From an uncultured Alphaproteobacteria bacterium (GTDB lineage Bacteria > Pseudomonadota > Alphaproteobacteria > Bin95): a stretch of DNA of 64,000 bases. This document shows, piece after piece, positions 16,246-33,519 of the stretch. Below the pieces are notes generated by a model. The model searched no databases and was not told where the DNA came from. It worked only from the letters and a program-made list of their open reading frames with translations. Each line of letters opens with the position of its first letter. Positions within the stretch are counted from its first letter, which is position 1. Position numbers and translations under genes: made by a program. Where the stretch lies: positions 8,432-72,431 of the forward strand of contig CALLKY010000030.1 of assembly GCA_938083135.1 (NCBI GenBank), read 5' to 3'.

Positions 16246-16521
16246 ATGCCCTCACGCAGAACATTTTCGCTAGGCAGCCATTTCGATGGCGTCATTGATT
16301 CACAGCTAGCGGCTGGACGTTTTGACAACGCTTCGGAAGTCGTGCGCGCGGGATTGCGCCTGCTTGAGGATTATGAGGCGCGAATGTCTCGCCTTCGTCA
16401 AGACATTGCAAAAGCGGATGCGCAGATTACGAATGGCGAGGGCATTGCCGTTAGTGATTCGAGAGCGTTTGCGAATGACATTGTAGGACGAGGGCGTGCG
16501 CGATTGAACCAAGAACAGTAA
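16246..16521 (+). CDS. parD: ParD-type antitoxin (ribbon-helix-helix, CC2985/COG3609 family).
   Basis: SLGSHFDGVIDSQLAAGRFDNASEVVRAGLRLLEDYEARM matches the ParD1 consensus (SLGDHFQ..IDSQV.SGRY.SASEVVRAALRLLEE). Confidence 0.7.
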   Translation: MPSRRTFSLGSHFDGVIDSQLAAGRFDNASEVVRAGLRLLEDYEARMSRLRQDIAKADAQITNGEGIAVSDSRAFANDIVGRGRARLNQEQ

Positions 16522-16802
16522 TCTACGCACCTGCGGCTCGGGCGGACCTTGATCAGATATTCGACTATATCGCTAGTGATAATCCGGTCAGAGCTGAGTC
16601 TTTTGTGCGCGAAATTGTTGAGCATGTTGCGCAGATTGCGGCGATGGGTGGCGGCGTTTCAAGAAGCTATGTCAGTCACGGATTGTTCGCAATCGTGCAC
16701 GGCCGCTATGTGATTTATTTTCGCCAAACGAAGGATGCCATCCAAATTCTCCGAATTTTGAATGGTGCAAGGGATGTATCGGGACTGCAATTTGATGGCT
16801 AA
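16503..16802 (+). CDS. parE: ParE-type toxin (RelE/ParE superfamily); no canonical start codon.
   Basis: The in-frame region encodes the ParE N-terminus (TVIYAPAARADLDQIFDYIASDNP) and C-terminus (YVIYFRQTKDAIQILRILNGARDV). The only in-frame ATG/GTG/TTG lies downstream at GTG 16605. The coordinates given assume an ATT start at 16503. Confidence 0.55.
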   Translation: MEPRTVIYAPAARADLDQIFDYIASDNPVRAESFVREIVEHVAQIAAMGGGVSRSYVSHGLFAIVHGRYVIYFRQTKDAIQILRILNGARDVSGLQFDG

Positions 16803-20014: not shown

Positions 20015-21094
20015 TTAGACGATTAGCAGTGCTTTCGCGTCTCGCCAAAGCTCTGGCAGAAGCGTTTCGGCTGATTGGGCCTGGGCAAGACCGCTTGCTT
20101 GACCAGCCCAAGCCTGGATTCTGTCGATATCGCCAGCTTTCGTCCCAGCGTCCCGCATGCCTTGGGTGAGGGCGCGCTGGACGGGGTAGGGTGCGGGACT
20201 TGGCGCATCTGAACGCGCAGCAGCCTGCGCATAGGCCGTTGCGATACTGCGTCCTGCACGTCCAGAGAAGGCACGAGTCACCATTGTGTCCTCTGGCGTT
20301 GCGGCACCGATAGCGTCGGCCCATGCTGGCACCAAACTGGCTTCCGGCGTCCGCAGTAGACCTGTCCCGATCTGGACTGCAGAGGCACCGAGTGTGAGCG
20401 CAGCCGCAATCCCGCGTGCGTCTGCAATGCCGCCTGTTGCCACCACTGGCACATCGACCGCATCAACAACTGCTGGCAGGAGAGCAAACAAGCCGATAGC
20501 CTTTACCTCCGCATCTCCTGCATCGAACGCGCCGCGATGACCGCCAGCCTCAGCACCCTGGGCTACAATCACGTCAGCGCCTGCGGCAGCCGCAGTTTTG
20601 GCTTCAGCCACAGTGGTGACCGTGGCGAACCATGCGATATTGCGGGCCTTCATCTCCACAATGAATTCAGGCGGATAGACACCCATAATTGATGAAATGA
20701 TGCTTGGGCCTGCGTCCAGCATTGCAGCGCATTGGGCCTCGAAATCTGGGCCGGGCCGGTCTGCCGCATCATCGGGCACATCGGGTCCCCACTGATGCAA
20801 AAACTGGCGTAGCTGGGCTTCATTCTCTGCATCTCGGGCGGGGGCAGGGTCCGGGATCCACAAATTCATCTGGAAGGCACCATTGGATGATGCGCGGACA
20901 TCTTTCGCCCAGGCTTTGATGGCGTCTGGCTGCATCAAAAGCGCACCGCAAGCACCGAGGCCGCCCGCGCGGGCGACAGCAGCGGCGAGGGGGGCAGGGC
21001 AGGCACCGGCCATGGGTGCCATCAGGATTGGCAATGCGAGGCCAAACCGCTCTGCGAATGCTTCAGCCAGTTGAATGCTTGTGGATCGTGTCAT
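20015..21094 (-). CDS. Nitronate monooxygenase (2-nitropropane dioxygenase family, FMN-dependent).
   Basis: ILMAPMAGACPAPLAAAVARAGGLGACGAL and VVATGGIADARGIAAALTLGASAVQIGT are NMO TIM-barrel signatures. GGAG RBS. Confidence 0.85.
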   Translation of the reverse strand: MTRSTSIQLAEAFAERFGLALPILMAPMAGACPAPLAAAVARAGGLGACGALLMQPDAIKAWAKDVRASSNGAFQMNLWIPDPAPARDAENEAQLRQFLHQWGPDVPDDAADRPGPDFEAQCAAMLDAGPSIISSIMGVYPPEFIVEMKARNIAWFATVTTVAEAKTAAAAGADVIVAQGAEAGGHRGAFDAGDAEVKAIGLFALLPAVVDAVDVPVVATGGIADARGIAAALTLGASAVQIGTGLLRTPEASLVPAWADAIGAATPEDTMVTRAFSGRAGRSIATAYAQAAARSDAPSPAPYPVQRALTQGMRDAGTKAGDIDRIQAWAGQASGLAQAQSAETLLPELWRDAKALLIV

Positions 21095-21106
21095 GGGGCC
21101 TCTCCA

Positions 21107-21574
21107 TTAGAATACGCCTGCCTCAAGTCCGGCGGCCATGGTCAGCCCAAGCTCTTTGCATTGCGCCTCAAAGGCAAGGTCATAAGGGCCGCCCATGATC
21201 AAAGGGGCTTGGACTGCACGCCAGCAAAGGCCAGTTACGATTTTTTCAACGGCGAATTTTGTCCCATCACCGCCATTCTGACCAGCACGGATATAAAGCG
21301 CATAGGGGAGGCCTTCAGTCCGCTCGATCACGGCATAATATGTGCGATCAAAGAAATCCTTCAGCGCGCCGGACATATAGGCCAGGTTTTCCGGCGTTCC
21401 GAGAATCAGTCCATCGGCGGCTAGCACATCATCTGGGACAGCATCGAAGGCAGATTTCTCGATCACTTCGATATCAGCAATATCTGGGTGGCGGGCACCA
21501 CGGAGCACAGCGTTCTTGAGCGCCTGCAAGTTTGGCGACGGTGCGTGAGCGATGAGGAGAAGACGTTTCGTCAA
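21107..21574 (-). CDS. Flavodoxin-like NAD(P)H-dependent FMN reductase.
   Basis: A 155-aa protein with the LLLIAHAPSPN...ADGLILGTPENLAYMSGALKDFFDR pattern. TTG start overlapping the LuxR stop. Confidence 0.55.
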   Translation of the reverse strand: MTKRLLLIAHAPSPNLQALKNAVLRGARHPDIADIEVIEKSAFDAVPDDVLAADGLILGTPENLAYMSGALKDFFDRTYYAVIERTEGLPYALYIRAGQNGGDGTKFAVEKIVTGLCWRAVQAPLIMGGPYDLAFEAQCKELGLTMAAGLEAGVF

Positions 21575-21575
21575 G

Positions 21576-22333
21576 TCAGTTTGTGATCCAGCTCTGGCGC
21601 GCGGCGATGGCGACGGCTTCAGTTCGATTGGCGGCGTTCAGTGTCTTCGAAAGTTCGGCGATATGGAACTTCACTGTGCGTTCGCTGACACCAAGAATAT
21701 CTGCGATCTCACCATTCGCGCGGCCCTTGGCCATCCAGGTCAGGCATTCCTGTTGGCGGCGGGTTAGCTTGACCTGCGCAGTCTCATCTTCTCCCTCAAG
21801 GAATACAAAATCGATGATGGAGGCGGCGAATGCGCGGGCCATATGGGCGAGTTCCGGCGTCGCTGCGGCAACCTTTTCAGGCGTTTCAGGATCGCCGCCG
21901 ATGCAATAGGCATTGATGACTTGGCAGCGTAGTGGAGTATGCACAGGTAAGTTGATATCGTATTTGAATCCGAAGCGCTTCTCCAATGAATACAGCCAGC
22001 GCCGACGCCGGTTAGGCTCTTCACCGCTGCGGGCTTCCTCGGTGGTAAATGGACGGTCAAACTTGGCTGCCGCTCGTAACAGCGGATCATCCTTGTAGAA
22101 GTTGCGTGCGATGTAGAGTGCCTCAAACGCCTTCAAATGTGCAGGGCCACGAGACAGCATATAAACATCGTTGCCGACAAGTGCTTCGACGGGCTTTCGC
22201 AAGTGCGTCCAATAAACGAATCCTGCAAAACCAAACTGTTCAGCGCATATTCAAATTCGTCCGCCAATTCATCTAGGCCATCAGCGTTCTGGAGTTTGCG
22301 ATAAAAGTCATCGCCCATCTGAATTTTCTCCAT
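21576..22333 (-). pseudogene. LuxR-family autoinducer-binding-type transcriptional regulator, interrupted by a frameshift.
   Basis: The C-terminal HTH (LTRRQQECLTWMAKGRANGEIADILGVSERTVKFHIAELSKTLNAANRTEAVAIAAR) and most of the ligand-binding domain are in one frame (21576..22250). The N-terminus (MEKIQMGDDFYRKLQNADGLDELADEFEYALNS) is in another frame (22236..22333). Restoring one T in a T-run (plus-strand A-run at 22231-22238) would give a continuous ...EYALNSFGFAGFVYW... protein of about 250 aa. Confidence 0.6.
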
Positions 22334-22451
22334 CAGATATCACCGCCGCCTCATCCCCATCGTTCAATGGCGAGAGGTCGCGCAATCAATACCAGACTTC
22401 GGCTAGACACAAGAAAAATTAATGGCGGTATCTAAATGCATACACAGATTA

Positions 22452-23240
22452 TCAGAATGATTGGCGCAATCTTATAGAGAGAGATGTGCTCTCAACGGCT
22501 TCATCACCGACCCTTACATCGCCTTCAAAATCAAGGGCTGTGCTTGGTGCTATTTTGAACCGGACGCCGCCTAGAAGTTTGGCAGAAAGCGTATCCCTGG
22601 CTGTGCTGCCTAGCCCGGGTTCCTCTTTGAAGCTGTACCGGCCTTCGATCCCAGCCATCATGGAGATACCGCCAAGAATGGGGGCGCGATACTGCATGAG
22701 AAGTTCAGTTGCCCGGGCGCTCAAATGTTCCGTGGGCAGACCTTGAATTTCAAGCCGTGCCTCAGAGAAGTTGGCGGTCAATGTGAATTCCGCCGTGGCT
22801 TTACCAATGGGCATGAAATAGTAGGCAAACGGGCTGATCTCACCACTTTCAAGCGCCAAGTCTGCCTTGGCACCGAAAGCGCGGACATCGCCCGCGTCAT
22901 AGCTATAGGTGGCACCGAGACCCAGATAGAAGCCCGGGAAACTTGCTGGTGCAATTTGATAGGCACCATAGGCTTCAATGGACCCACCACGGGCAGAAAC
23001 TTCGGAGAAGAAGAATCCGCTGCCAAAGTCGCCGTCGGTATCCCGTCCTTCCAATACGCCACCAAAGGCGAAGTTGCCCCAGACCATATCGACGCCGATC
23101 TCTGGCCCGATGCTTTCAAGGTTAGACGGCGTGGAGCCGCCAATGACGTTGCGCTTCTCACGGTCTAGAGATGCACCTGCATAGATTTCGCCGGTAACCG
23201 GCTCACTCTTCGCTGCGAATGGCAATGCGGTTGCAAGCAA
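22452..23240 (-). CDS. Outer-membrane beta-barrel protein (OmpW/opacity/porin-like).
   Basis: The sequence shows alternating amphipathic beta-strand patterning and a C-terminal ...SLSIRLRQSF (terminal Phe). The signal-peptide-like ARNSAACALAVLLATALPFAA lies upstream of the first TTG and has no in-frame ATG. Confidence 0.55.
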   Translation of the reverse strand: MLATALPFAAKSEPVTGEIYAGASLDREKRNVIGGSTPSNLESIGPEIGVDMVWGNFAFGGVLEGRDTDGDFGSGFFFSEVSARGGSIEAYGAYQIAPASFPGFYLGLGATYSYDAGDVRAFGAKADLALESGEISPFAYYFMPIGKATAEFTLTANFSEARLEIQGLPTEHLSARATELLMQYRAPILGGISMMAGIEGRYSFKEEPGLGSTARDTLSAKLLGGVRFKIAPSTALDFEGDVRVGDEAVESTSLSIRLRQSF

Positions 23241-23413
23241 TACGGCAAGCGCGCATGCGGCTGAATTCCGGGCTTGTCCGGCAAAACAAGGGCAAAATTG
23301 GGCCAGAGTCCCCTCCGCTTCGTTGCCCGAAATTCCATAGAAATAAGCAGTTAGCCAGGAGCTGGACCAGTTGGATAGGTTGAGAACTCAACCCGGTTCG
23401 CAAGACTAAGCAA

Positions 23414-24073
23414 ATGTTAATGCGAATGCCAACATCCCAAAGCGATACCCAGGGGCGAAAATTGCCTGCCGTCTGGTTGATCTCAGTGCTTTTCGTCAGC
23501 GCGCTCACGCTCTCAACCGCACAAGCGCAGACTGAGATTGTCACGACGGCTGTGCGGGCAAATCAGTCTGAATTCATCATCCGTGACGGCATGGACGCCG
23601 GGTTTTCCGGCCGTGTTCATGTGCATTTGGCGCAAGGTGTGTGTGTTGGTTCAGATCAGCCGACGGACATGACGATCAAATCACTTACGCTGTTCGAAGC
23701 AGTTCGCGGCCGGGTTCTTGATGGTGATCAGGGCAAGGTGTTGGTGAACGCGACTGAAGCGCAGGTGAAGGAAACTGAGCGGGCGGGACAGCTTGCTGGA
23801 TCCATTTTGCAGGCCGCCTCGCAAAACAGTCTTGGTGCGTTTGGGTCTGATCGGGCGATCAATTGGTTCAATGCCAGCATTACAGACGCGCAGCTGCAGC
23901 TGACGGCTGAGCCGGTGGCCTCACTGCTGGTTAAGCCGGACGGAACGCCTGCGGCGGCTGTGTTGGCTGGCTGCTACACGACGCAGCAATTGCAGAAACT
24001 GCGCGGCCTGCTTGTCACGTCCGCACAAGCACTGACGACAGATTTGCAGTTGCCACGGATCAATCCACGTTAG
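23414..24073 (+). CDS. Secreted hypothetical protein (219 aa) with a signal peptide; first gene of the secreted cluster.
   Basis: The signal peptide KLPAVWLISVLFVSALTLSTAQA-QTE is present. The gene ends 8 nt before the next ORF. Confidence 0.45.
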   Translation: MLMRMPTSQSDTQGRKLPAVWLISVLFVSALTLSTAQAQTEIVTTAVRANQSEFIIRDGMDAGFSGRVHVHLAQGVCVGSDQPTDMTIKSLTLFEAVRGRVLDGDQGKVLVNATEAQVKETERAGQLAGSILQAASQNSLGAFGSDRAINWFNASITDAQLQLTAEPVASLLVKPDGTPAAAVLAGCYTTQQLQKLRGLLVTSAQALTTDLQLPRINPR

Positions 24074-24095
24074 CCGCGCGATGCCTTGGGGGAGA

Positions 24096-27000
24096 ATGTC
24101 TATGAAATACTTCGGTATTGCAGTCACTGCCGCTCTCTTCGGAGCATTGCTTGGGGCACCTGCAGCGGGCCAAGGGCTAACGAAGGATGAGCGCGCAAGG
24201 GCGCTGAAGCTCACGAGCGAGCTTGAAGCGCGCTTAGACCAGAGCTGCCAGCCTGTTGTTGATCAGATCCGCTCAATTCTGGATGATTTTCATACGTTCC
24301 AAGTTGCCCGCAGCACGATTGCGAACGGCTACCAGGCTGAAATTCAGGCAACCCAAGCCGAGCTTGCCAGACCATTCCTGCAAATTGAGGCTGAGTATGA
24401 AGCATTTAAGCGGCGGGCGCTGGATGCAGAGATTTTGCTCGGCGAGGACGTCGCGAGTGAAATTCATGATCCCGATCTTGATGAATTCAATATCTTCGGC
24501 GTTCCAATGGAGGGGTTGGCACTGACGGCATCTTCGATTGAGAAGGTCGAGGAGATGACGCCAGAGTTCAATCAGCTCAGGCTGCAATACGACGCCCTTG
24601 TCGCTGAACATCGCGAGCGTGCCAAACGCATGGCAAAGCGCTTTAACGATAATTTGATCAGCGGGTTCCGCTTTCTGGATCAAACTGCTGAACGCATTCA
24701 GGCGCGGAAAGATGCGCTGGTCGCACTTTTTGCAGATCAAAGCGGGCCATTCGCTCATTGTCTTGGTTATTCAGGCTCAACGAAAGATGAGATTGGCGCG
24801 CTTGTTGGCATTCCTGCACTGGTCACGCCGATTTCAAAAGTGCTCGGCCTCAATGTGCAAGCGCCTGAACCGGTGGAGAACATTGGTGAGCGCCTTGTGC
24901 AGCTGGGCATCCTGGAACCACCACCAGAACCCAAGGTCGAGATCAAGCGGAATGGTGAGGAATATCTAGAACTCTTTGCTGGCCTTTTGGAGGCCCGTAA
25001 TGAGGGCGATAGCGCCATGATCAAGGCCGAGGCGCTGACGGCCGTGACCCATGTATTGGAGACTGCGAAGGCCTTCACTTACGGGATGTTCCTAGGGCCG
25101 CTCGAGCCATTTACCCGTGATGACCTGACCGTCATGCAGGCTTTCTATCAATCGGGCAAAGACATGACCGTCGGCGCAGTCCAAGGGGCTGTCGATTCCT
25201 TTGCGGTCGTCATCGAAAATGAAACACAGCGCGGTGCGGAACTCTACACCGCACTCGGCGGTGGGGACCTGACAGCGGCAGCCGCGTTCGCTGATTTTGG
25301 TGGCGCGATGCAGGCCGTCGTCGCGACGACTAGGATCACGCTGAATACCTTGAAATCGAATGCGGCACCTAAGCGGTCCGATCATGTGAGTGGGATCGTT
25401 GGACTTGTGGCTTATGTCGATGAATTACGCTTTCACAACGAAGATTTGAAACTGTTGGCGGAGCAAACCGCAGACAGCGTCGCCAAATTCAATCGTGCTG
25501 TTGATACATGGATGGCTGTTTTCCAAATCGCCCTGACGTTTGAAGGGGGCAAGGGGACGGTAAAGAACGCCAAAAATCTGGGCGGGAAAGTCAAACAGGA
25601 TGGCGCTGTCGTCGGCTCGTTCAGCTTTCTGGTCGAGCGCGCCAAGGCTTCATATGACCAAGCCAACATCCGGTTTGAGCAAGGCAAAGCGATTGCGCGC
25701 AAAGGCAAGGAGTCCATCGTTGCAGCGAAGGATTTGCTATCCCGCAAAAAGCTGGGCGAGGACGTGCCGGCCGATGCAGAGCTTATTGCGACCAAGGTTC
25801 TGGATGAGCAGCAGCGGATAGAGGAAGCGCTGGACGCAGAGACTTCCATCTCAGAAAGCACGGCATTCCTGAACCGTCAGATAGATGCGTCTGTGGACTT
25901 CAGTGGTGCCAAGTTCCTTGATGAAGTGACCAATGCGCGGCCAACGCCCGATCAACCAGATGGTGGGGCAGCAAAAACCCGCATTGTTGAACCCGACCCG
26001 CCACCACCACCGCCGCCGCCACCTCCTCCGCCAAGACGCACCGCGCGCGATCTGGGCGTGGTTGAGGGCGCAAAGCCCGGCAAGCCAGATTTACCGCCTG
26101 TCCTCAGCGCTGAAGAAGTCGGCCCGAAAGTGACGCCCATTGAAATCGCGCCGCAGGGTGAAACCTTCGCACTGAATGACGGCAGGCAGATTGATGTGGA
26201 GATCGGCGGGCAATCGCTTTCAGGCAATGTCAGCGATGTCTTTCTGGGCGACGATGTCGTCATAAAACTGGTGAAAGACACTGGCGACGTTGCAACGGTG
26301 AATACGCCAAGGACAGCCGACACCATCAACCGGATTGAGACAGCGGCAGCCACCTTGAACGATTTGGACGCGGCCTTGGATGGCGTGGGCGTTGGTGCGT
26401 CGCGCTTCCTCGGCGACAAAAAAATCAAAGTAAAGGTAAAAGTTGTTGGCCCGGACGGGGAGGTCACCTTCCGCAAAGAAGAGCGCACGGCGCAAGTGTT
26501 CGAAAAATTTGAGACGAAATCGAAGAACAATGAAATTGTTCAAGGCTTTGGCGATGATATTTTGCGCCAACAAGGCGCTTTCACGCCCGGTCAGGTACAG
26601 GCGATCGTTCTGGGCAAGATATTATTGACGGATTTCGGCGTCGTGTTGCGCGACTTCAAGCCGGATAACTTTGGTCTGGTGAAAATCGGCGAGCCTGACT
26701 CGTGGAAAATCCATATCACAGATGTCGATATGGTCCGTCGATTAGGTGATACCCGCACCGCGAAAGGCAGGCTCAAAGGCGATACATCGGCAGATTTGCG
26801 CAAGATTGCGGATTTCCGAATTCGGGGCAAAGATTCTCCTGCTACCAAGATCAATGACGTCCGCGTTGATCTGGACGGGATTCAGCGTGTTGAAGGCAAT
26901 GTCGGCCTGACAAAAGATGCGCTCGACAAAGGTATTGCGACACCTGATGGCGATGGCCGCTTCACGATTAATCCTGACGATAAGCTGGCAAATGAGCTCC

Positions 27001-27512
27001 TGGACAAATTCGTCGAGGATCCTGACGCCGCCATCCAAGACATCTTTGGCAATGATAAAGCCTCTGCCGACGCCATCCAGCAGAAGCGCGCCATAATCCA
27101 AAAGCAGGGTGAAGAACGCGCGCAGAAGCTGCGTGAAGAGCAGTTGACGTTGGAAAATGCGGAGCGTGCTGAAGCCGAAGCAAAAGCCAATGAGGCAGAG
27201 ATTGGGAACAGCATCGATACCGAATTGCCGAAGATTAAGTTTGCCACTGATGGCGACGATGGCGGGAGCAGTAGTGGTGGTGGCTTCAGTCTTGACGACT
27301 TTGATACCGATGGAGAAATCAGCAGCAATCAGACATTTGAAACGCCGAAGAAAGACACATTCTTACTGGATTCCGATAACGGCAGTGATGGCTCTGAAAC
27401 GCCGCTTGATACAAATTTTGGCACGAATGAACCCAATTTTGGTGCCATGTTTGGAGATTTGTTCAAGAACAAGGGCGATGGCGACAGCCCGCCTACAGGT
27501 GGCGGGAGTTGA
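24096..27512 (+). CDS. Large Sec-signal protein (about 1140 aa): helical N-terminal half, poly-Pro linker, protein-kinase-like domain, acidic disordered tail.
   Basis: Signal peptide MKYFGIAVTAALFGALLGAPAAG-QG. Twelve consecutive Pro codons at 25998-26033. Kinase-fold motifs: Gly-loop EIGGQSLSGNV, beta3 Lys in DDVVIKLVK, catalytic loop VLRDFKPDNFGLV, and a DFG-like KIHITDVDM. Confidence 0.7.
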   Translation: MSMKYFGIAVTAALFGALLGAPAAGQGLTKDERARALKLTSELEARLDQSCQPVVDQIRSILDDFHTFQVARSTIANGYQAEIQATQAELARPFLQIEAEYEAFKRRALDAEILLGEDVASEIHDPDLDEFNIFGVPMEGLALTASSIEKVEEMTPEFNQLRLQYDALVAEHRERAKRMAKRFNDNLISGFRFLDQTAERIQARKDALVALFADQSGPFAHCLGYSGSTKDEIGALVGIPALVTPISKVLGLNVQAPEPVENIGERLVQLGILEPPPEPKVEIKRNGEEYLELFAGLLEARNEGDSAMIKAEALTAVTHVLETAKAFTYGMFLGPLEPFTRDDLTVMQAFYQSGKDMTVGAVQGAVDSFAVVIENETQRGAELYTALGGGDLTAAAAFADFGGAMQAVVATTRITLNTLKSNAAPKRSDHVSGIVGLVAYVDELRFHNEDLKLLAEQTADSVAKFNRAVDTWMAVFQIALTFEGGKGTVKNAKNLGGKVKQDGAVVGSFSFLVERAKASYDQANIRFEQGKAIARKGKESIVAAKDLLSRKKLGEDVPADAELIATKVLDEQQRIEEALDAETSISESTAFLNRQIDASVDFSGAKFLDEVTNARPTPDQPDGGAAKTRIVEPDPPPPPPPPPPPPRRTARDLGVVEGAKPGKPDLPPVLSAEEVGPKVTPIEIAPQGETFALNDGRQIDVEIGGQSLSGNVSDVFLGDDVVIKLVKDTGDVATVNTPRTADTINRIETAAATLNDLDAALDGVGVGASRFLGDKKIKVKVKVVGPDGEVTFRKEERTAQVFEKFETKSKNNEIVQGFGDDILRQQGAFTPGQVQAIVLGKILLTDFGVVLRDFKPDNFGLVKIGEPDSWKIHITDVDMVRRLGDTRTAKGRLKGDTSADLRKIADFRIRGKDSPATKINDVRVDLDGIQRVEGNVGLTKDALDKGIATPDGDGRFTINPDDKLANELLDKFVEDPDAAIQDIFGNDKASADAIQQKRAIIQKQGEERAQKLREEQLTLENAERAEAEAKANEAEIGNSIDTELPKIKFATDGDDGGSSSGGGFSLDDFDTDGEISSNQTFETPKKDTFLLDSDNGSDGSETPLDTNFGTNEPNFGAMFGDLFKNKGDGDSPPTGGGS
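25998..26033 (+). repeat. (CCN)12 trinucleotide tract encoding poly-proline.
   Basis: ccg cca cca cca ccg ccg ccg cca cct cct ccg cca, in frame with the 1143-aa ORF. Confidence 0.9.
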
Positions 27513-27517
27513 GCCGC

Positions 27518-29998
27518 ATGCAAGGTCTAAGAATCAGGCTCCTGCTGATTGCCGCGGTCGCAGGGATGATCTTCACAGTGCCGCAAGCGCGCGCGCAAAT
27601 TCTGCGAAGTGATGCCGTTGAGCAAAGGAATAGCAACGCAGCTGCCGGGTATACCCGGGCCCAACTGCGCCTCTACATCGAACGCCTAAAGCGCATCAAA
27701 CGAGCGATTGGCGACACATCCCCGATTGATGCTGGCCAGTTCGTAGACCTACCGCGCCCGCGCGATATTTTGCTTGAAGTACGCCCCCCTGAAACGAAGC
27801 GCAAGCTATCGCCGTTGCAGGGTGGTGGTCAGTTCGTTTTGGGCAGTCTTGCGGCAAAGCTCACCGTGACAGATTTCGTCGCGATCGACCGGCTGAACCG
27901 GCTGGTGGGTGCGAACCAGACCTATATTGCCAATGGTCGACGCGCCGCAATTCTACTGGATCTGCCAACAAAACTGCAATTGACGGTGAGTGGGGTGGCC
28001 CAGCAGGTAACGCCTGAACCCTGCACTTTTTCGCGGATCGAAAACGGTTTGCGCAAAACAAAGCGGGGGCGGAGGGATGTGATTGGGCCGAAACAGATAT
28101 TCACATACCTGCCGGGCGAACTTGCCAATGCCGCTACGATCACAAGTGGGAATGGCATCACGCTGACGGACGATGGGTTTTACGTGGGCCAGGCCGTGAC
28201 GGGCCAAGTTGAGTCCGTAGTCACGGTTGCTGGTGGGTCAGTGTTGAATCGAACGCTGCGCCGGGGCTGCACAGAGCAGCTACCAGAGCGCCAGGATTTC
28301 AAGCGCGAGTTTAAGCTAGGCGGGATCGCGCTGGCCCATGTCTCCCTCGCTGGATTGCCGCGTAAAGATGGAGCGCTGGGGGTTGCGCAGGATAACGCTA
28401 CTGATTTCTTTGTACGGCGTGGTGGTAGCCAAACGCCTGCTCTTGAGCTTGCCCCGCAAATGGAGGCGACGCTTGGCGAGAGCAGCGTGATCATGCCAAT
28501 CCCGCGCAGTAAGTTTCGCGTCGTCAGCACGACAGGAGGCTATACCAGCACCAGAAACTCTGCCGGGTTCATCGTCACCTCGCCTGCAACAGCCGCTACT
28601 GGGGCCATCACCATCCAGACAATTGATGGTGAGTTGCCTGCGGCTGTGCACCGTCTGACCACGAATGAGATGTTTCCTCTGGCGCTCAGCACAAAGCGTG
28701 TGCGGGTGGGGGAGCAGGTTAGTGCTGCAGTCGCAATCGTTGGCGATGCTGATATGAGCCAGTACGTCGCCATCTGGGAGGCGGGCGGCCTTGCGCCCAA
28801 AACAATCGAAACCGGGTTCGAGAAGTCTGGCGCTGGATGGGCAAGCGTTGCGGAATTCACAGCGGAAAGCGGCATCCTGCAGGAGTTCAAGGATGCGCTG
28901 CAGTTGGCTAAGGACACCCGCCAGAGTGATGATCCAGAACCTGCGCCCGGCGTGGGTCTGGCAAAGAAACGCGCCAATATCCTGGTAAAGGTTGTACGCA
29001 AGAGCGACCGGAAATCGATGATCGGGACCAGCGGAACTGTTGAGGTTGTGCCGGAGATTACAGCCGTACGGATCACAGGTGGATATACCGGCGAGCGCTT
29101 TGGCAAGACCGTAGACTTGTTCAACCCGCCTGGCGAAGTGCCAGCGGCTTCGTTCAGGGCGGAAATTGATATTGCTGCTGGGGCCGAGAAGCTGACTTTT
29201 ACCAGTCAGGATGCCCGGATTGGGCGCTTGGTTCGCCTGCAGGCAACGCGGGGGGCACCCTTTACGATACGGGACCGGACGGTCGCTATCGCTAATCCAT
29301 CTGGCGCACCAATCGGTGCGGCGGCTGTCCGCGGCGTCATCCGCCTTGCAGATGCGTTGGGCATTGCGGGATTGGTCCTTCCAGAAGGGCAAGACACGCT
29401 GTTCAGTGACCCGGTTCGGGTGACAGTAAACCGCCTGACCCAAGCGCATTTTGTGACGCCTGGCGGTAAGCGTGAACTCACTGTCGGCGTGTTGGGCCCG
29501 GCGGACATGGGGCGCTACCAAGCTGTTTGGGCGCTGACCGGCAGTCAGGAAACCTCGAAGCCATTTAGCCAGGATAAAGGCGGGTTTATCGCCAAGCACA
29601 CGATTTCTGATTTCCGCTTGGTTCCCTCAGTGACAGACGTTCGGCTGGGAGGTGTCGTTGTTGGCCGCATGGGTGGTGCTGCCGGCGGTGCTGAGCGTGA
29701 CGCCAACGTAGCGGCAATTGTGGCGCTGGAGGCACCGGCGTTAATCCAGGGTAAACCGCTGAAAGTCCGGGCCCGGCTCGCCAATGTACCAAAGCCGCTT
29801 TGGCCAAGGCTGTATTGCGCGTGGTCGGTGGACAGCATTTACGGAAAGTTGGCAGAGCCTGAGTCTGCGGCACTGATGAACTCGACGTTCAATGGGGTGT
29901 GCGAGAATACGTTCACCCTGCGCGAAACCCTCGCGACGATTGATGAAACGCCGAATTTGGAGGTGGAGCTGCGCATCCGCCAGGGAACGCTAAAATGA
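27518..29998 (+). CDS. Secreted hypothetical protein (about 826 aa) with an internal repeated domain.
   Basis: ATG 27518 with a GGCGGGAG RBS. Signal peptide LRIRLLLIAAVAGMIFTVPQARA-Q. The two repeats are VAIVGDADMSQYVAIWEAGG... and VGVLGPADMGRYQAVWALTG.... Confidence 0.6.
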   Translation: MQGLRIRLLLIAAVAGMIFTVPQARAQILRSDAVEQRNSNAAAGYTRAQLRLYIERLKRIKRAIGDTSPIDAGQFVDLPRPRDILLEVRPPETKRKLSPLQGGGQFVLGSLAAKLTVTDFVAIDRLNRLVGANQTYIANGRRAAILLDLPTKLQLTVSGVAQQVTPEPCTFSRIENGLRKTKRGRRDVIGPKQIFTYLPGELANAATITSGNGITLTDDGFYVGQAVTGQVESVVTVAGGSVLNRTLRRGCTEQLPERQDFKREFKLGGIALAHVSLAGLPRKDGALGVAQDNATDFFVRRGGSQTPALELAPQMEATLGESSVIMPIPRSKFRVVSTTGGYTSTRNSAGFIVTSPATAATGAITIQTIDGELPAAVHRLTTNEMFPLALSTKRVRVGEQVSAAVAIVGDADMSQYVAIWEAGGLAPKTIETGFEKSGAGWASVAEFTAESGILQEFKDALQLAKDTRQSDDPEPAPGVGLAKKRANILVKVVRKSDRKSMIGTSGTVEVVPEITAVRITGGYTGERFGKTVDLFNPPGEVPAASFRAEIDIAAGAEKLTFTSQDARIGRLVRLQATRGAPFTIRDRTVAIANPSGAPIGAAAVRGVIRLADALGIAGLVLPEGQDTLFSDPVRVTVNRLTQAHFVTPGGKRELTVGVLGPADMGRYQAVWALTGSQETSKPFSQDKGGFIAKHTISDFRLVPSVTDVRLGGVVVGRMGGAAGGAERDANVAAIVALEAPALIQGKPLKVRARLANVPKPLWPRLYCAWSVDSIYGKLAEPESAALMNSTFNGVCENTFTLRETLATIDETPNLEVELRIRQGTLK

Positions 29999-30765
29999 GG
30001 CGTGCGCTTGGAATTTTTGCCATCGCTGCATTGGCCTATGCGGCACCTGTTGCGGCTGACATCACCATTGGCCGAGATATTCTGCGATCCGGCGATGTCT
30101 CGCCCTCCAGCAAGCTTTTTGAATTGCTGCTGAAGAGTGAGGACGCACGCAACCAACTTCAGATCCAAAATGAAAAGCGGGCAGCGCTTAAGAACAAACG
30201 TTTCAAGCGCGTGGTGAAGAAGGTCCAGGTTAAGGACGTTATTAAGCGGGCCGGCAACAACCCGCTGAACCAACAGCAGCCGCTGAACAACACCACACTT
30301 GCCAATGGCGAAACGGTTCTGGTCGCGGCAGATGACTTGAACCAAGGCGGCGCTGGCGGCGGGGCCGGGCTGGCAGCATGTATTGGCCAGCAGGTTTTTG
30401 CAGCACCGAGCCCAACAGCACCGCCAGAGATCGTGTTCGTCAATGTCCGCGTTGATCCAGCGACACTTGATTGCAGTGTGGCGGGTGGTCAAAGCGCTGA
30501 CGGGGACTTCTTGATCTTCCAATTCGGCACGAATGGCGGCGTTGTTGATGCGATCCTCGTATTCGCGGACGTGCTCCAGCCAGATTGGATACTGATCAGC
30601 CCACCCAACCGGTTCCTGCAGTTTGTAGCGCCCAATACAACACTGACACTGACCTTCGAGAACCGGTCCGCTGACAACAGCGTCACCATCAGAACGACAG
30701 TGCTGGTGCAAACGGGTGGCCTGACAACAACAAGCATCACGATCCTGAATATGGAGGTGCTCTGA
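29995..30765 (+). CDS. Secreted hypothetical protein (256 aa).
   Basis: Signal peptide MRRALGIFAIAALAYAAPVAA-D. The start ATG overlaps the upstream stop (ATGA). Confidence 0.55.
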   Translation: MRRALGIFAIAALAYAAPVAADITIGRDILRSGDVSPSSKLFELLLKSEDARNQLQIQNEKRAALKNKRFKRVVKKVQVKDVIKRAGNNPLNQQQPLNNTTLANGETVLVAADDLNQGGAGGGAGLAACIGQQVFAAPSPTAPPEIVFVNVRVDPATLDCSVAGGQSADGDFLIFQFGTNGGVVDAILVFADVLQPDWILISPPNRFLQFVAPNTTLTLTFENRSADNSVTIRTTVLVQTGGLTTTSITILNMEVL

Positions 30766-31274
30766 TGATTGCGCGCAGTTCTCTGTTCATTTTGGTGGCG
30801 TTAACTGTCGCCATCATTGCCTCTACTGCAGACGCACAGAAGGTCCGCATCTTCAAGAAGATCGCTGCCCCAGAAACACCCCCAACCGGTACGGAATTGA
30901 TTGAGGAGATGCTGCCCCCTGATCCCGGGGTGGCGGGACGGGCAATCACTGATGCGCTGGAAAATTGGAACAGCGGAGACTTCAGCGGCAACATCTCAGA
31001 GGACTTCCAGGACAAATCCCGCCTGCTGGATAACTTCGCGAATGATGTGCCGCTTGACGCCGAACTTCGCGTTACGGCCATGCGGAATTATCGCCCTATG
31101 CAGCAGTTCGGGCGTGTCGGCGACAGTGGCAATGTCGAAATCACGACGCGGATCCAAGTGACCGCAGAGACCGAAATTCAATTCAATGACCCGCAGCGCG
31201 GCTTCAGGCGACTGCTGGGAACCAATGATTTCGTCGTCGATGTGACGGAAGAATTGGTTCCGATTCCGAACTAG
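30765..31274 (+). CDS. Secreted hypothetical protein (169 aa).
   Basis: Signal peptide MIARSSLFILVALTVAIIASTADA-Q. The start overlaps the upstream stop (TGATG). Confidence 0.5.
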   Translation: MIARSSLFILVALTVAIIASTADAQKVRIFKKIAAPETPPTGTELIEEMLPPDPGVAGRAITDALENWNSGDFSGNISEDFQDKSRLLDNFANDVPLDAELRVTAMRNYRPMQQFGRVGDSGNVEITTRIQVTAETEIQFNDPQRGFRRLLGTNDFVVDVTEELVPIPN

Positions 31275-31284
31275 GACAGGCGCT

Positions 31285-33519
31285 GTGCTGAACAAACGTA
31301 TCCTCAGTGCCGCTGTATCGGCGAGCGCTCTCCTGCTTGGATCTAGCGGCATTGCTTTGGCCCAGGACGCCACCGATGAACCGTTCATGGGCGCATGGCG
31401 GGTTGATGGAACGCTCACTACGAAGTTTGAGAACTATTCCGTCGGCGGCAATGACGCGAACTCGCCCTTTAAGGACACAGGAGAGCAATTTCACATCGAG
31501 TTCGATATCCGGGCTGAACAAGATATCTCAGCATTCGAGACTGTGCGGATGAGTGCGGCAGGCGTGGCTATTAACGAGTCCGCCTATCGTGCGCCACAGC
31601 GAGGTTTCATCTTGGAGCGGGCCGGGTTCGAATGGGAGAAAGGCGACGCAACGGTTCCATTCGTAGTCGAGGGCGGCAACACATTCGCTTTCTTCTCGCA
31701 GCAAACGGTGCAGCGGAACCTCGTTGGTGCCCATGTGGAACTGCAGCCGCAAATTGTTGGTCAGGACCAGGGCCTATCAGTCATCGCGTTCGCGGGGGAA
31801 AGTGCGAAGAACCATCGGGCCATCGATTTTGGCGATGACGTGTTCACAGGTTTGTCTGCATTGTTCTTCGATCCGGAATATGGGTCTTTCAGCCTCAATG
31901 GAATCGCGAATTTCCGGGATGAGCAAGCGGGCCTTCGTCGGCGCGACCAGAATGTCGTGACAGCAGCGTGGGCACATACATTGCTGCCAAGTGATGGCCA
32001 TAGCCTTGATGTATATTTTGAAGCCGGTGTGTTGTCAGGCGATATTGTCAACCGGGCAGGGGCTGTCGTCGCAGAAACGGATTTTGGCGGTGCGCTGGAA
32101 TTAGATGGTCGTATCCGTGAAGGCGGTTGGAGTTATGGCGCGCGGTTTGAGCGCTTTGGCGAAGACTATGCGCCGAACGGTGCCTCTGTCACGAAAGACC
32201 GGATCACGGCGGAAGGCCGGGTCGGTAAGCGTTTCGAGGATGGCTTGTCTATACGCGGGCGGTCTCAGTTTTTCCAAGACGCAGTTGATAGCGGCAATGC
32301 TACGGATACGTTGACCTACGGCCTGGATTTTGCGGGGCCAACGAAGTTCATTGGCTTGGATAAGGGGAGCTTTTCCTGGAACAACTTCCTACAGAACGTA
32401 GAAAATGAGCTTTCGACAACAGAGCGCGATACTTATTCCAGCAACTTCAATTTCACCCATCCCCTGGACGACCTGACGACGGGCCGCATTGGTGCCCAAT
32501 ATCGCCTGATTGATGACCATGTGGGGGCGGCTGATACGGACACTGCGCAAGTGAATGTAGCGTTAGACCGACGGTTCGTGATTGATGATTGGGGCGTGGA
32601 AGGCTCAGGCTCCCTTGGCTTTACGTATCGGGAGAACGGGTCTGAAGGACAGTTGACTGCGCGCGATATGACGCCGAATGCGGGCATTAATTTCAATTGG
32701 GGCGCACATACATTTGCAGCTGACTATAGGGCACAGATTCAGAACCGGCGGCAGGGTGGTCAAGATCTTGTCAGCCATCGCGTTGGCCTGAACTGGTCTT
32801 GGAGCGACGGACCGCATCGATTTGCCTTTGATGGCAGCTTTGATGGCCGGGAGCCGCGTGGCTTGGAAGATACAAGGGCGTATAAGGTCGGCTTTACGTA
32901 CACTCTGAGCTTTAACAAGGCCGCAGGGCAGTCCTTCAGCGAAGGCCTGGGCGAAGGGCCAAACCTCGTGCCGCTAGACCCCGATGCGCCGAAGGGGGAT
33001 GTGCGCTTTACGCCAGCGTCGGACATGATGGCGTTGACGCCAGACAAGCCGATGACAGAAACGGTCCAAAGCCTTGAGGCCGGCGGGATTACTGGCGGCG
33101 TCGATATCGCTGGCGTCACGGTCTATGAGACGGCCGCACTCCTGCCGCAGATCAGCGAACGCCAGCGCTTGGCCTTGGTTTCAAAGAACGGCGGGCTTCG
33201 GACCGCTGCGCTTATCATCGATGTTGCTGAGCCCAATGATGCGGAGCGCCTTTTCACGCGGGTCGAAGGTGAGTTGGCGCGCCGGTATGGGCAGCCATCA
33301 GACTCGTTCTCTGAGGGCGACTTTACGGGTGATGTCGCGACGAAGATCGGCAATGGCGAGTTGATCCGAGCGACTGAATGGCGTGGGCCGGGCGGGCCAT
33401 TACGGTTGTTCATTCCCCGCCGCCTTGATGGGCTGGTCCGCCTGGAGATTCAACGGGCTGCCACCTTCCAGCCAATCACCGAAAACAGGGTCGGGGCCGG
33501 CGTTGATACGGTCAGGTAA
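31285..33519 (+). CDS. Secreted/outer-membrane beta-rich protein (744 aa), possibly a large beta-barrel.
   Basis: Signal peptide MLNKRILSAAVSASALLLGSSGIALA-QD. There are many alternating aromatic/Gly strand-like segments (YKVGFTYTLSF, GSLGFTYREN, GINFNWGAHTF). Confidence 0.55.
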   Translation: MLNKRILSAAVSASALLLGSSGIALAQDATDEPFMGAWRVDGTLTTKFENYSVGGNDANSPFKDTGEQFHIEFDIRAEQDISAFETVRMSAAGVAINESAYRAPQRGFILERAGFEWEKGDATVPFVVEGGNTFAFFSQQTVQRNLVGAHVELQPQIVGQDQGLSVIAFAGESAKNHRAIDFGDDVFTGLSALFFDPEYGSFSLNGIANFRDEQAGLRRRDQNVVTAAWAHTLLPSDGHSLDVYFEAGVLSGDIVNRAGAVVAETDFGGALELDGRIREGGWSYGARFERFGEDYAPNGASVTKDRITAEGRVGKRFEDGLSIRGRSQFFQDAVDSGNATDTLTYGLDFAGPTKFIGLDKGSFSWNNFLQNVENELSTTERDTYSSNFNFTHPLDDLTTGRIGAQYRLIDDHVGAADTDTAQVNVALDRRFVIDDWGVEGSGSLGFTYRENGSEGQLTARDMTPNAGINFNWGAHTFAADYRAQIQNRRQGGQDLVSHRVGLNWSWSDGPHRFAFDGSFDGREPRGLEDTRAYKVGFTYTLSFNKAAGQSFSEGLGEGPNLVPLDPDAPKGDVRFTPASDMMALTPDKPMTETVQSLEAGGITGGVDIAGVTVYETAALLPQISERQRLALVSKNGGLRTAALIIDVAEPNDAERLFTRVEGELARRYGQPSDSFSEGDFTGDVATKIGNGELIRATEWRGPGGPLRLFIPRRLDGLVRLEIQRAATFQPITENRVGAGVDTVR

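Follow-up and report, generated by a model that had tools for sequence, protein, structure and literature searches.

A one-base deletion in a LuxR-type regulator gene of uncultured coastal Alphaproteobacteria: a probable young pseudogene in a near-clonal population

Introduction

Small mutations that inactivate quorum-sensing-type receptors are well known and common. Loss-of-function variants of lasR are known in Pseudomonas aeruginosa populations, and in Agrobacterium tumefaciens a frameshifted copy of traR encodes TrlR (TraS), a truncated TraR-like protein that keeps the N-terminal ligand-binding and dimerisation domain, loses the helix-turn-helix (HTH) domain and acts as a dominant-negative inhibitor. 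For LuxR of V. fischeri, the C-terminal domain on its own is an activator that needs no autoinducer. The gene described here resembles both the lasR variants, in that a signal-receptor gene disabled by a small mutation has spread in a natural population, and TrlR, in that a frameshift has altered a gene of the LuxR family. It differs from the former because lasR variants arise repeatedly, whereas here the mutation is found in all contigs sampled from an environmental, near-clonal population. It differs from the latter because the frameshift falls at codon 27, leaving an N-terminal fragment with only 26 native residues and an HTH part without a start.

Closest in architecture are the LuxR solos, among them VjbR of Brucella, AvhR of Agrobacterium vitis and the PAB solos OryR and XccR, with which the family studied here has in common the Autoind_bind plus GerE HTH architecture and fold, the lack of an adjacent luxI and a partial loss of hallmark residues. 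Six residues, W57, Y61, D70, P71, W85 and G113 in TraR numbering, are the hallmarks of the AHL pocket (PMC10134790, PMC4338825). Their partial loss has been read as a sign of a possible non-AHL ligand (PMC4338825, PMC10134790), and comparable pocket substitutions are found in the solo groups of VjbR and AvhR (PMC4338825). Unlike these solos, the present family has a substitution pattern of its own (W57F, W85T/S and G113D) together with an 11-residue SRGP insertion, and the copy in the analysed stretch of 64,000 nucleotides, hereafter the window, is broken.

Results and Discussion

Gene structure and the one-base deletion

Two minus-strand ORFs, 22133-22333 (66 aa) and 21576-22202 (208 aa), overlap in different frames. 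Joined by one added base, they form a single LuxR-type protein that is 88-94% identical to the closest intact orthologs. The original prediction had taken the pair for one LuxR-family gene split by a single-base frameshift, and Pfam searches on the joined ORFs as well as the alignment with intact orthologs bear this out. The Pfam check that it proposed on the repaired translation returned both domains above cutoff, Autoind_bind (PF03472) with 37 bits (cutoff 23) and GerE (PF00196) with 66 bits (cutoff 23.5); with this GerE score and an open frame, its claim of an intact HTH domain holds as well. The downstream piece alone still matches Autoind_bind with 26 bits (cutoff 23), and the upstream piece alone has no Pfam match. 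Similarity to NCBIfam models (SdiA, TraR and others) stays below threshold, so that the protein is the equivalog of no named regulator. The window has a GC content of 57%, and a megablast search of 21000-23300 against a plasmid collection gave no match. The parts of the gene are as follows.

21576..22318, minus strand: whole frameshifted LuxR-type gene, from ATG 22318 to the stop TGA at 21578-21576, as placed by alignment with intact 247-codon orthologs
22328..22331, minus strand: Shine-Dalgarno sequence GGAG, 9 nt 5' of ATG 22318; GGGG or GGAG in relatives
22133..22318, minus strand: upstream fragment of 61 codons, comprising 26 native residues (MGDDFYRKLQNADGLDELADEFEYAL) and 35 out-of-frame residues, then TGA
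22240..22241, minus strand: position of the 1-nt deletion; in intact alleles a C stands between these bases, GCGCTG[C]AACAG, in codon 27, CAA (Gln)
21576..22202, minus strand: downstream fragment, 208 codons from TTG 22202 or 194 from ATG 22160
21927..22273, minus strand: autoinducer-binding-type domain PF03472, residues 21-136 of the 252-aa repaired protein, interrupted by the frameshift
21603..21770, minus strand: GerE/LuxR-type HTH domain PF00196, residues 145-200 of the 208-aa ORF, frame intact

The gene measures 743 nt in the window and 744 nt (247 codons) in intact orthologs, and the downstream fragment corresponds to residues 40-247 (TTG start) or 54-247 (ATG start) of the intact protein. 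The start codon conserved in relatives is ATG 22318. ATG 22333, from which the 66-aa ORF had been read, is replaced by ACG in relatives and is a doubtful start.

The position of the lesion was fixed by aligning the window DNA with six intact ortholog loci (L014-L016, L020 and L017-L018, representing three distinct alleles) of 85-89% nucleotide identity. The alignment contains a single gap column, in which all six loci carry a C that is missing from the window. At this point the sequence is GCGCTGCAACAGTTTGGTTTTGC (A L Q Q F G F A) in intact alleles and GCGCTG-AACAGTTTGGTTTTGC in the window, and the ancestral peptide at the lesion is ...EYALQQFGFAGF.... The frame that runs uninterrupted from the conserved start to the stop in intact alleles is thus broken in the window by the loss of one nucleotide in codon 27; the window luxR showed no additional stop or indel. 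The sequence context of the lost base is non-repetitive, a lone C between G and A. The minus-strand runs TTT (22235-22233) and TTTT (22230-22227) have equal lengths in intact and broken alleles.

These data relocate the indel. The original prediction had assigned it to a T missing from a T run, that is, to a plus-strand A-run at 22231-22238; the bases at these positions are CCAAACTG and do not form an A-run, the T runs are unchanged, and the base lost is the C between 22241 and 22240. The repaired peptide that it had offered, ALNSFGF, does restore the frame and contains a real GF..Y element, yet two of its residues are wrong, with NS in place of the ancestral QQ.

Gene callers annotate both pieces in public assemblies, as they would if these were two genuine, separate genes. 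We regard that reading as extremely improbable, because the split is confined to one near-clonal lineage, the upstream piece ends in 35 residues that are out of frame and match no Pfam family, and the downstream piece lacks translation signals of its own. The comparison with orthologs, which had been proposed as a check, points the same way: relatives at 85-89% nucleotide identity all have one single gene, and a split organisation is not conserved among them.

Recurrence in public contigs

The identical deletion, with no other indel, is present in 18 contigs (L001-L013 and L026-L030) from different ENA, JGI and Logan samples, which are 99.8-99.97% identical to the window over 3.2 kb. Both broken products are also found among public proteins. 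The 208-aa ORF is identical to P0075 and its 194-aa ATG-initiated version to P0071, which appears in 55 index blocks of the contig collection; the exact 61-aa upstream product is present in the public protein collection, and near-identical 61- and 66-aa versions of the same 90% cluster lie on 25 and 10 contigs, respectively. A collection of ~15 billion proteins contains no exact copy of the C-repaired protein, in either its 247-aa or its 252-aa version. A scan of JGI metagenome DNA with lineage-specific flanks, admitting either no or one extra base, found two contigs, each with the deleted form. The mutation is real: all sampled contigs of a near-clonal population (at least 99.8% identical), one that recurs in many metagenomes, carry it.

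Since the same deletion occurs in 18 independent contigs and no intact version was found, a one-off or random sequencing error is excluded and phase variation is unsupported. Single-base indels are the commonest assembly error, and one scaffold has a 10-N gap at the site, as might be expected if the true genome carried an intact gene that had been misread or misassembled. The missing base, however, is a lone C between G and A outside any homopolymer, the 18 contigs that share the identical deletion are independent in sample, project and assembler, and the collections contain no intact version of the allele, which makes a sequencing or assembly error very unlikely. The original prediction had allowed for a sequencing indel at a homopolymer; that version fails on both counts, as the site is not a homopolymer and the deletion recurs in 18 independently assembled contigs. 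The gap itself, in L013 (ERZ23496952 scaffold, ~250-280), lies 4 nt downstream of the deletion at about window position 22236 and is accompanied by a duplicated GTTT. It may be a coincidence or an assembly break, and CTGAACAG before the gap still shows the deletion.

A phase-variable (contingency) locus, switched ON and OFF by slipped-strand mispairing, had been another of the proposed outcomes. Short T runs of 3 and 4 nt do lie 5-14 nt downstream of the site, but the indel falls outside them and they have the same length in both allele types. No homopolymer in the fragment exceeds 4 nt, the site has no repeat tract, the 18 contigs show no length polymorphism, and no intact (ON) allele was found. 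Switching of this kind hence seems hardly credible, and of the three outcomes originally considered only a pseudogenised receptor survives.

We consider it highly likely that this LuxR-type gene with its genuine single-base deletion is an ordinary young pseudogene, belonging to an atypical, locally orphan clade of uncultured coastal Alphaproteobacteria. In the proposed course of events, a single C would have been lost from codon 27 (CAA) of a gene for a LuxR-type ligand-sensing transcription factor. Translation from ATG 22318, served by the Shine-Dalgarno sequence GGAG, would then produce 26 native residues and 35 out-of-frame codons before ending at the stop at 22133, and the remaining 80% of the gene, the intact HTH included, would be left without translation signals of its own. 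The receptor would either not be made or appear only as a trace of N-terminally truncated product, probably misfolded. We infer from this a loss of receptor function and a lesion that is neutral or advantageous.

For annotation, the locus is best treated as one pseudogene (frameshifted LuxR-family regulator) and not as two genes or an assembly error. It would represent a further natural example of a bacterial population shedding a signal receptor, and it draws attention to an uncharacterised clade of LuxR solos in uncultured Alphaproteobacteria with a non-canonical ligand pocket. The understanding of quorum sensing or of frameshifting is unchanged by it.

Age and constraint

Codon changes unique to each of four lineages were counted as nonsynonymous (N) or synonymous (S), with a neighbouring gene of the window as a control.

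20015..21094, minus strand: gene of the nitronate-monooxygenase family (NMO), PF03060

The N:S ratio is 5:19 for the window luxR, 1:11, 6:8 and 7:28 for the intact luxR lineages, and 7:39 for the window NMO gene. As a test of decay these counts, which have low power, give no signal, luxR being no worse than NMO or the intact lineages with 6:8 and 7:28. The luxR variants seen within the population are not numerous enough for a test: three are synonymous, and two are nonsynonymous singletons. With no second disabling mutation and an N:S ratio no worse than in these comparisons, the sequence alone cannot prove that selection on the ORF has ended. The substitution G243S (window 21589-21591, ...ARQSWITN) places Ser at a Gly that is invariant in 28/28 intact family members; it hints at relaxed constraint and is the sole such sign besides the frameshift.

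The divergences bracket the event. The deletion appears to be later than the split from the nearest sampled intact lineage (~11-12% nucleotide divergence in the gene) and older than the coalescence of the present near-clonal population (~0.1-0.2%). Because the rest of the ORF is clean, the deletion seems to be recent and the pseudogene young.

Possible rescue of expression

Relative to the upstream frame, the downstream one is shifted by -1; the two are open together over ~105 nt (22241-22136), so that a -1 slip within this interval would rescue the full-length protein. Programmed recoding, by -1 ribosomal frameshifting or by transcriptional slippage, is nevertheless very improbable. An in-frame X XXY YYZ slippery heptamer was sought and none was found; the longest homopolymer in the fragment, 4 nt, is too short for transcriptional slippage, for which no run of at least 5 nt is available. 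All relatives, moreover, encode the protein in a single frame, indicating that this is not a conserved recoding site.

Termination-reinitiation, as known from bacteria, is the basis for a candidate 194-aa product from ATG 22160, because the stop of the upstream ORF (22135-22133) sits 25 nt downstream of this codon. Neither restart codon is well equipped. The sole candidate Shine-Dalgarno sequence for TTG 22202 is an AGGA 18 nt upstream, which is not usable, and ATG 22160 has no Shine-Dalgarno sequence upstream. A scan of 21000-23600 for sigma-70-like promoters found zero sites, with a consensus that may not fit the host organism.

The consequences of a restart were judged on an AlphaFold2 model of the intact ortholog P0001 (pLDDT 84.9), which begins with helices at residues 2-10 and 15-28 and strands at 33-40 and 52-57. 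The frameshift maps to the end of helix 15-28. Initiation at TTG would place the first residue at 40 and remove strand beta1; initiation at ATG would place it at 54, within beta2. Going by this model, most of the ligand-binding domain would survive in either product, but its central sheet would be mutilated, which argues for misfolding rather than for a freed HTH domain.

With these data, we can weigh the reading in which reinitiation at ATG 22160 (194 aa) or TTG 22202 (208 aa) yields an N-terminally truncated protein that acts as an altered regulator, either ligand-independent or dominant-negative on a paralogous LuxR protein. The clean downstream ORF with its intact GerE domain, the N:S ratio of 5:19 without decay, the upstream stop just past ATG 22160, and a 55%-identical paralog in a related MAG, which is a possible partner, are consistent with it. 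On the other hand, neither start has a Shine-Dalgarno sequence, no promoter-like site was found in the scanned interval, and a product without beta1, or without beta1 and half of beta2, is predicted to misfold rather than to release the HTH domain. A recent mutation explains the absence of decay equally well, and G243S strikes an invariant residue. We thus regard an altered regulator as unlikely. Its most far-reaching form, in which the frameshifted allele is alive as a 194-aa protein without the first 53 residues, signal-blind or dominant-negative, and the resulting rewiring let the clone spread over many coastal sites, is quite doubtful. A young pseudogene is the reading that we retain.

Intact family and ligand pocket

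Protein searches recovered a family of intact proteins of 245-265 aa, mostly 247 aa, and the PF03472 domain is present in the intact orthologs. A Foldseek search with the P0001 model placed RhlR, QscR, SdiA, LasR, CviR and TraR among the top matches (E 1e-13 to 1e-8), and the ligand-binding domain superimposes on that of LasR with a TM score of 0.80-0.83 and an rmsd of about 3 A. The modelled intact ortholog has the alpha/beta/alpha ligand-binding fold and the four-helix HTH of the solved receptors, to which its sequence is only ~20% identical. Pocket positions were assigned by an hhalign profile alignment to TraR (probability 97.6%; TraR sequence verified as identical to 1h0m), with the following result.

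TraR W57: F70 in the family, replaced (hhalign)
TraR Y61: Y74 in the family, kept (hhalign)
TraR D70 and P71: D83 and P84 in the family, kept (hhalign)
TraR W85: T98 (T or S in the family), replaced (hhalign)
TraR G113: D126 (invariant in the family), replaced (hhalign)

Three of the six hallmarks of the AHL pocket are thus kept, short of the full set by which AHL-responsive receptors are recognised. In the HTH, L198 and G204 align with the hallmarks L182 and G188, and E178 aligns with Q194 (Q or E in the family). The family also carries an 11-residue insertion with a conserved SRGP motif. Judged by the criterion of the surveys that define the hallmarks (PMC10134790, PMC4338825), the pocket pattern suggests a ligand other than a canonical AHL; with its pocket F-Y-D-P-T/S-D and this insertion, the intact family may sense a non-AHL ligand.

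Among GTDB representatives, a scan found two related MAGs, both alphaproteobacterial. The nearest named genus within the family is Minwuia, at ~50% identity. One locus, L025 (CAWUWV010000200.1, 4265-5005) of MAG HER19_SLT_250_bin_110, is a second, 55%-identical LuxR-solo family member on a separate contig, and there may be paralogous redundancy in the group of this MAG. No paralog was found in the 64-kb window.

Genomic neighbourhood

The domain context within +-10 kb of the gene was taken from the Pfam annotation of a 76-kb public contig, and small ORFs were scanned separately. The original prediction that no luxI-type gene lies nearby proved correct, with no Autoind_synth (LuxI, PF00765) match within +-10 kb. 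None was found either in ten further small ORFs of the window or in seven family contexts. In the surroundings examined, the gene would accordingly be classed as a locally orphan, or solo, LuxR. Its immediate neighbours, besides the NMO gene, are as follows.

21107..21574, minus strand: FMN_red (NADPH-dependent FMN reductase) gene, PF03358, starting 1 nt after the luxR stop
22452..23240, minus strand: outer-membrane-barrel-like (OMP-like) gene, 262 aa, upstream of luxR at a distance of 133 nt; Autotransporter beta-domain at 17.8 bits (sub-threshold), C-terminal Phe

Since the FMN_red gene starts 1 nt past the luxR stop, the two are probably co-transcribed. The neighbourhood of the intact orthologs consists of the OMP-like gene, luxR, FMN_red, NMO, Asp_Glu_race and CN_hydrolase. 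The FMN_red/NMO part is kept only in the close clade and not at 50-60% identity, so it gives no firm information on the regulon. A search of the two intergenic regions for Lux-box-like palindromes found none upstream of luxR; the sole palindrome in the two regions is a GC-rich one of 10 nt near the start of the OMP-like gene.

The OMP-like gene varies as well. One population member, L007, has a nonsense variant, Y105* (window 22926), and in the L017/L018 lineage the gene is split into calls of 131, 119 and 69 aa beside an intact luxR. Many further genes on the L017 contig are fragmented, which makes assembly indels a possibility there.

Divergent from the OMP-like/luxR unit, six tightly packed ORFs (219, 1143, 829, 256, 169 and 744 aa) occupy 23414-33519 on the plus strand. 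They have no Pfam match at E<=0.1 and no NCBIfam match at E<=0.01, and no PDB sequence gave a solid match to the three large ones. All six have signal-peptide-like N-termini. Judged by size and position, a 219-aa gene and the gene after it flank the intact luxR allele in another metagenome in the same arrangement. Together, the six ORFs may encode an envelope or secreted system that is so far uncharacterised, and they may form a candidate regulon for the LuxR solo. In the secreted-looking 1143-aa protein (24081-27512, plus strand), residues ~850-900 read ...VLRDFKPDNFGLV...KIHITDVDMV..., a stretch that resembles a protein-kinase catalytic loop (HRDxKPxN) followed by a DFG-like motif; the phmmer match to casein kinase I 5x18 is weak (E 0.004, 18 bits).

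Elsewhere in the window, the interval 16246-16802 on the plus strand contains a ParD-antitoxin gene (16246-16521, 91 aa; assigned to PF03693 on the identical public contig) and, behind it, an ORF that resembles a ParE toxin by eye. The N-terminal part of the ParE-like ORF is open from 16479 with no ATG, GTG or TTG before 16605, so the toxin is possibly degraded. Both members of the pair occur in the window lineage and in L017, and L014, L015 and L020 lack the pair.
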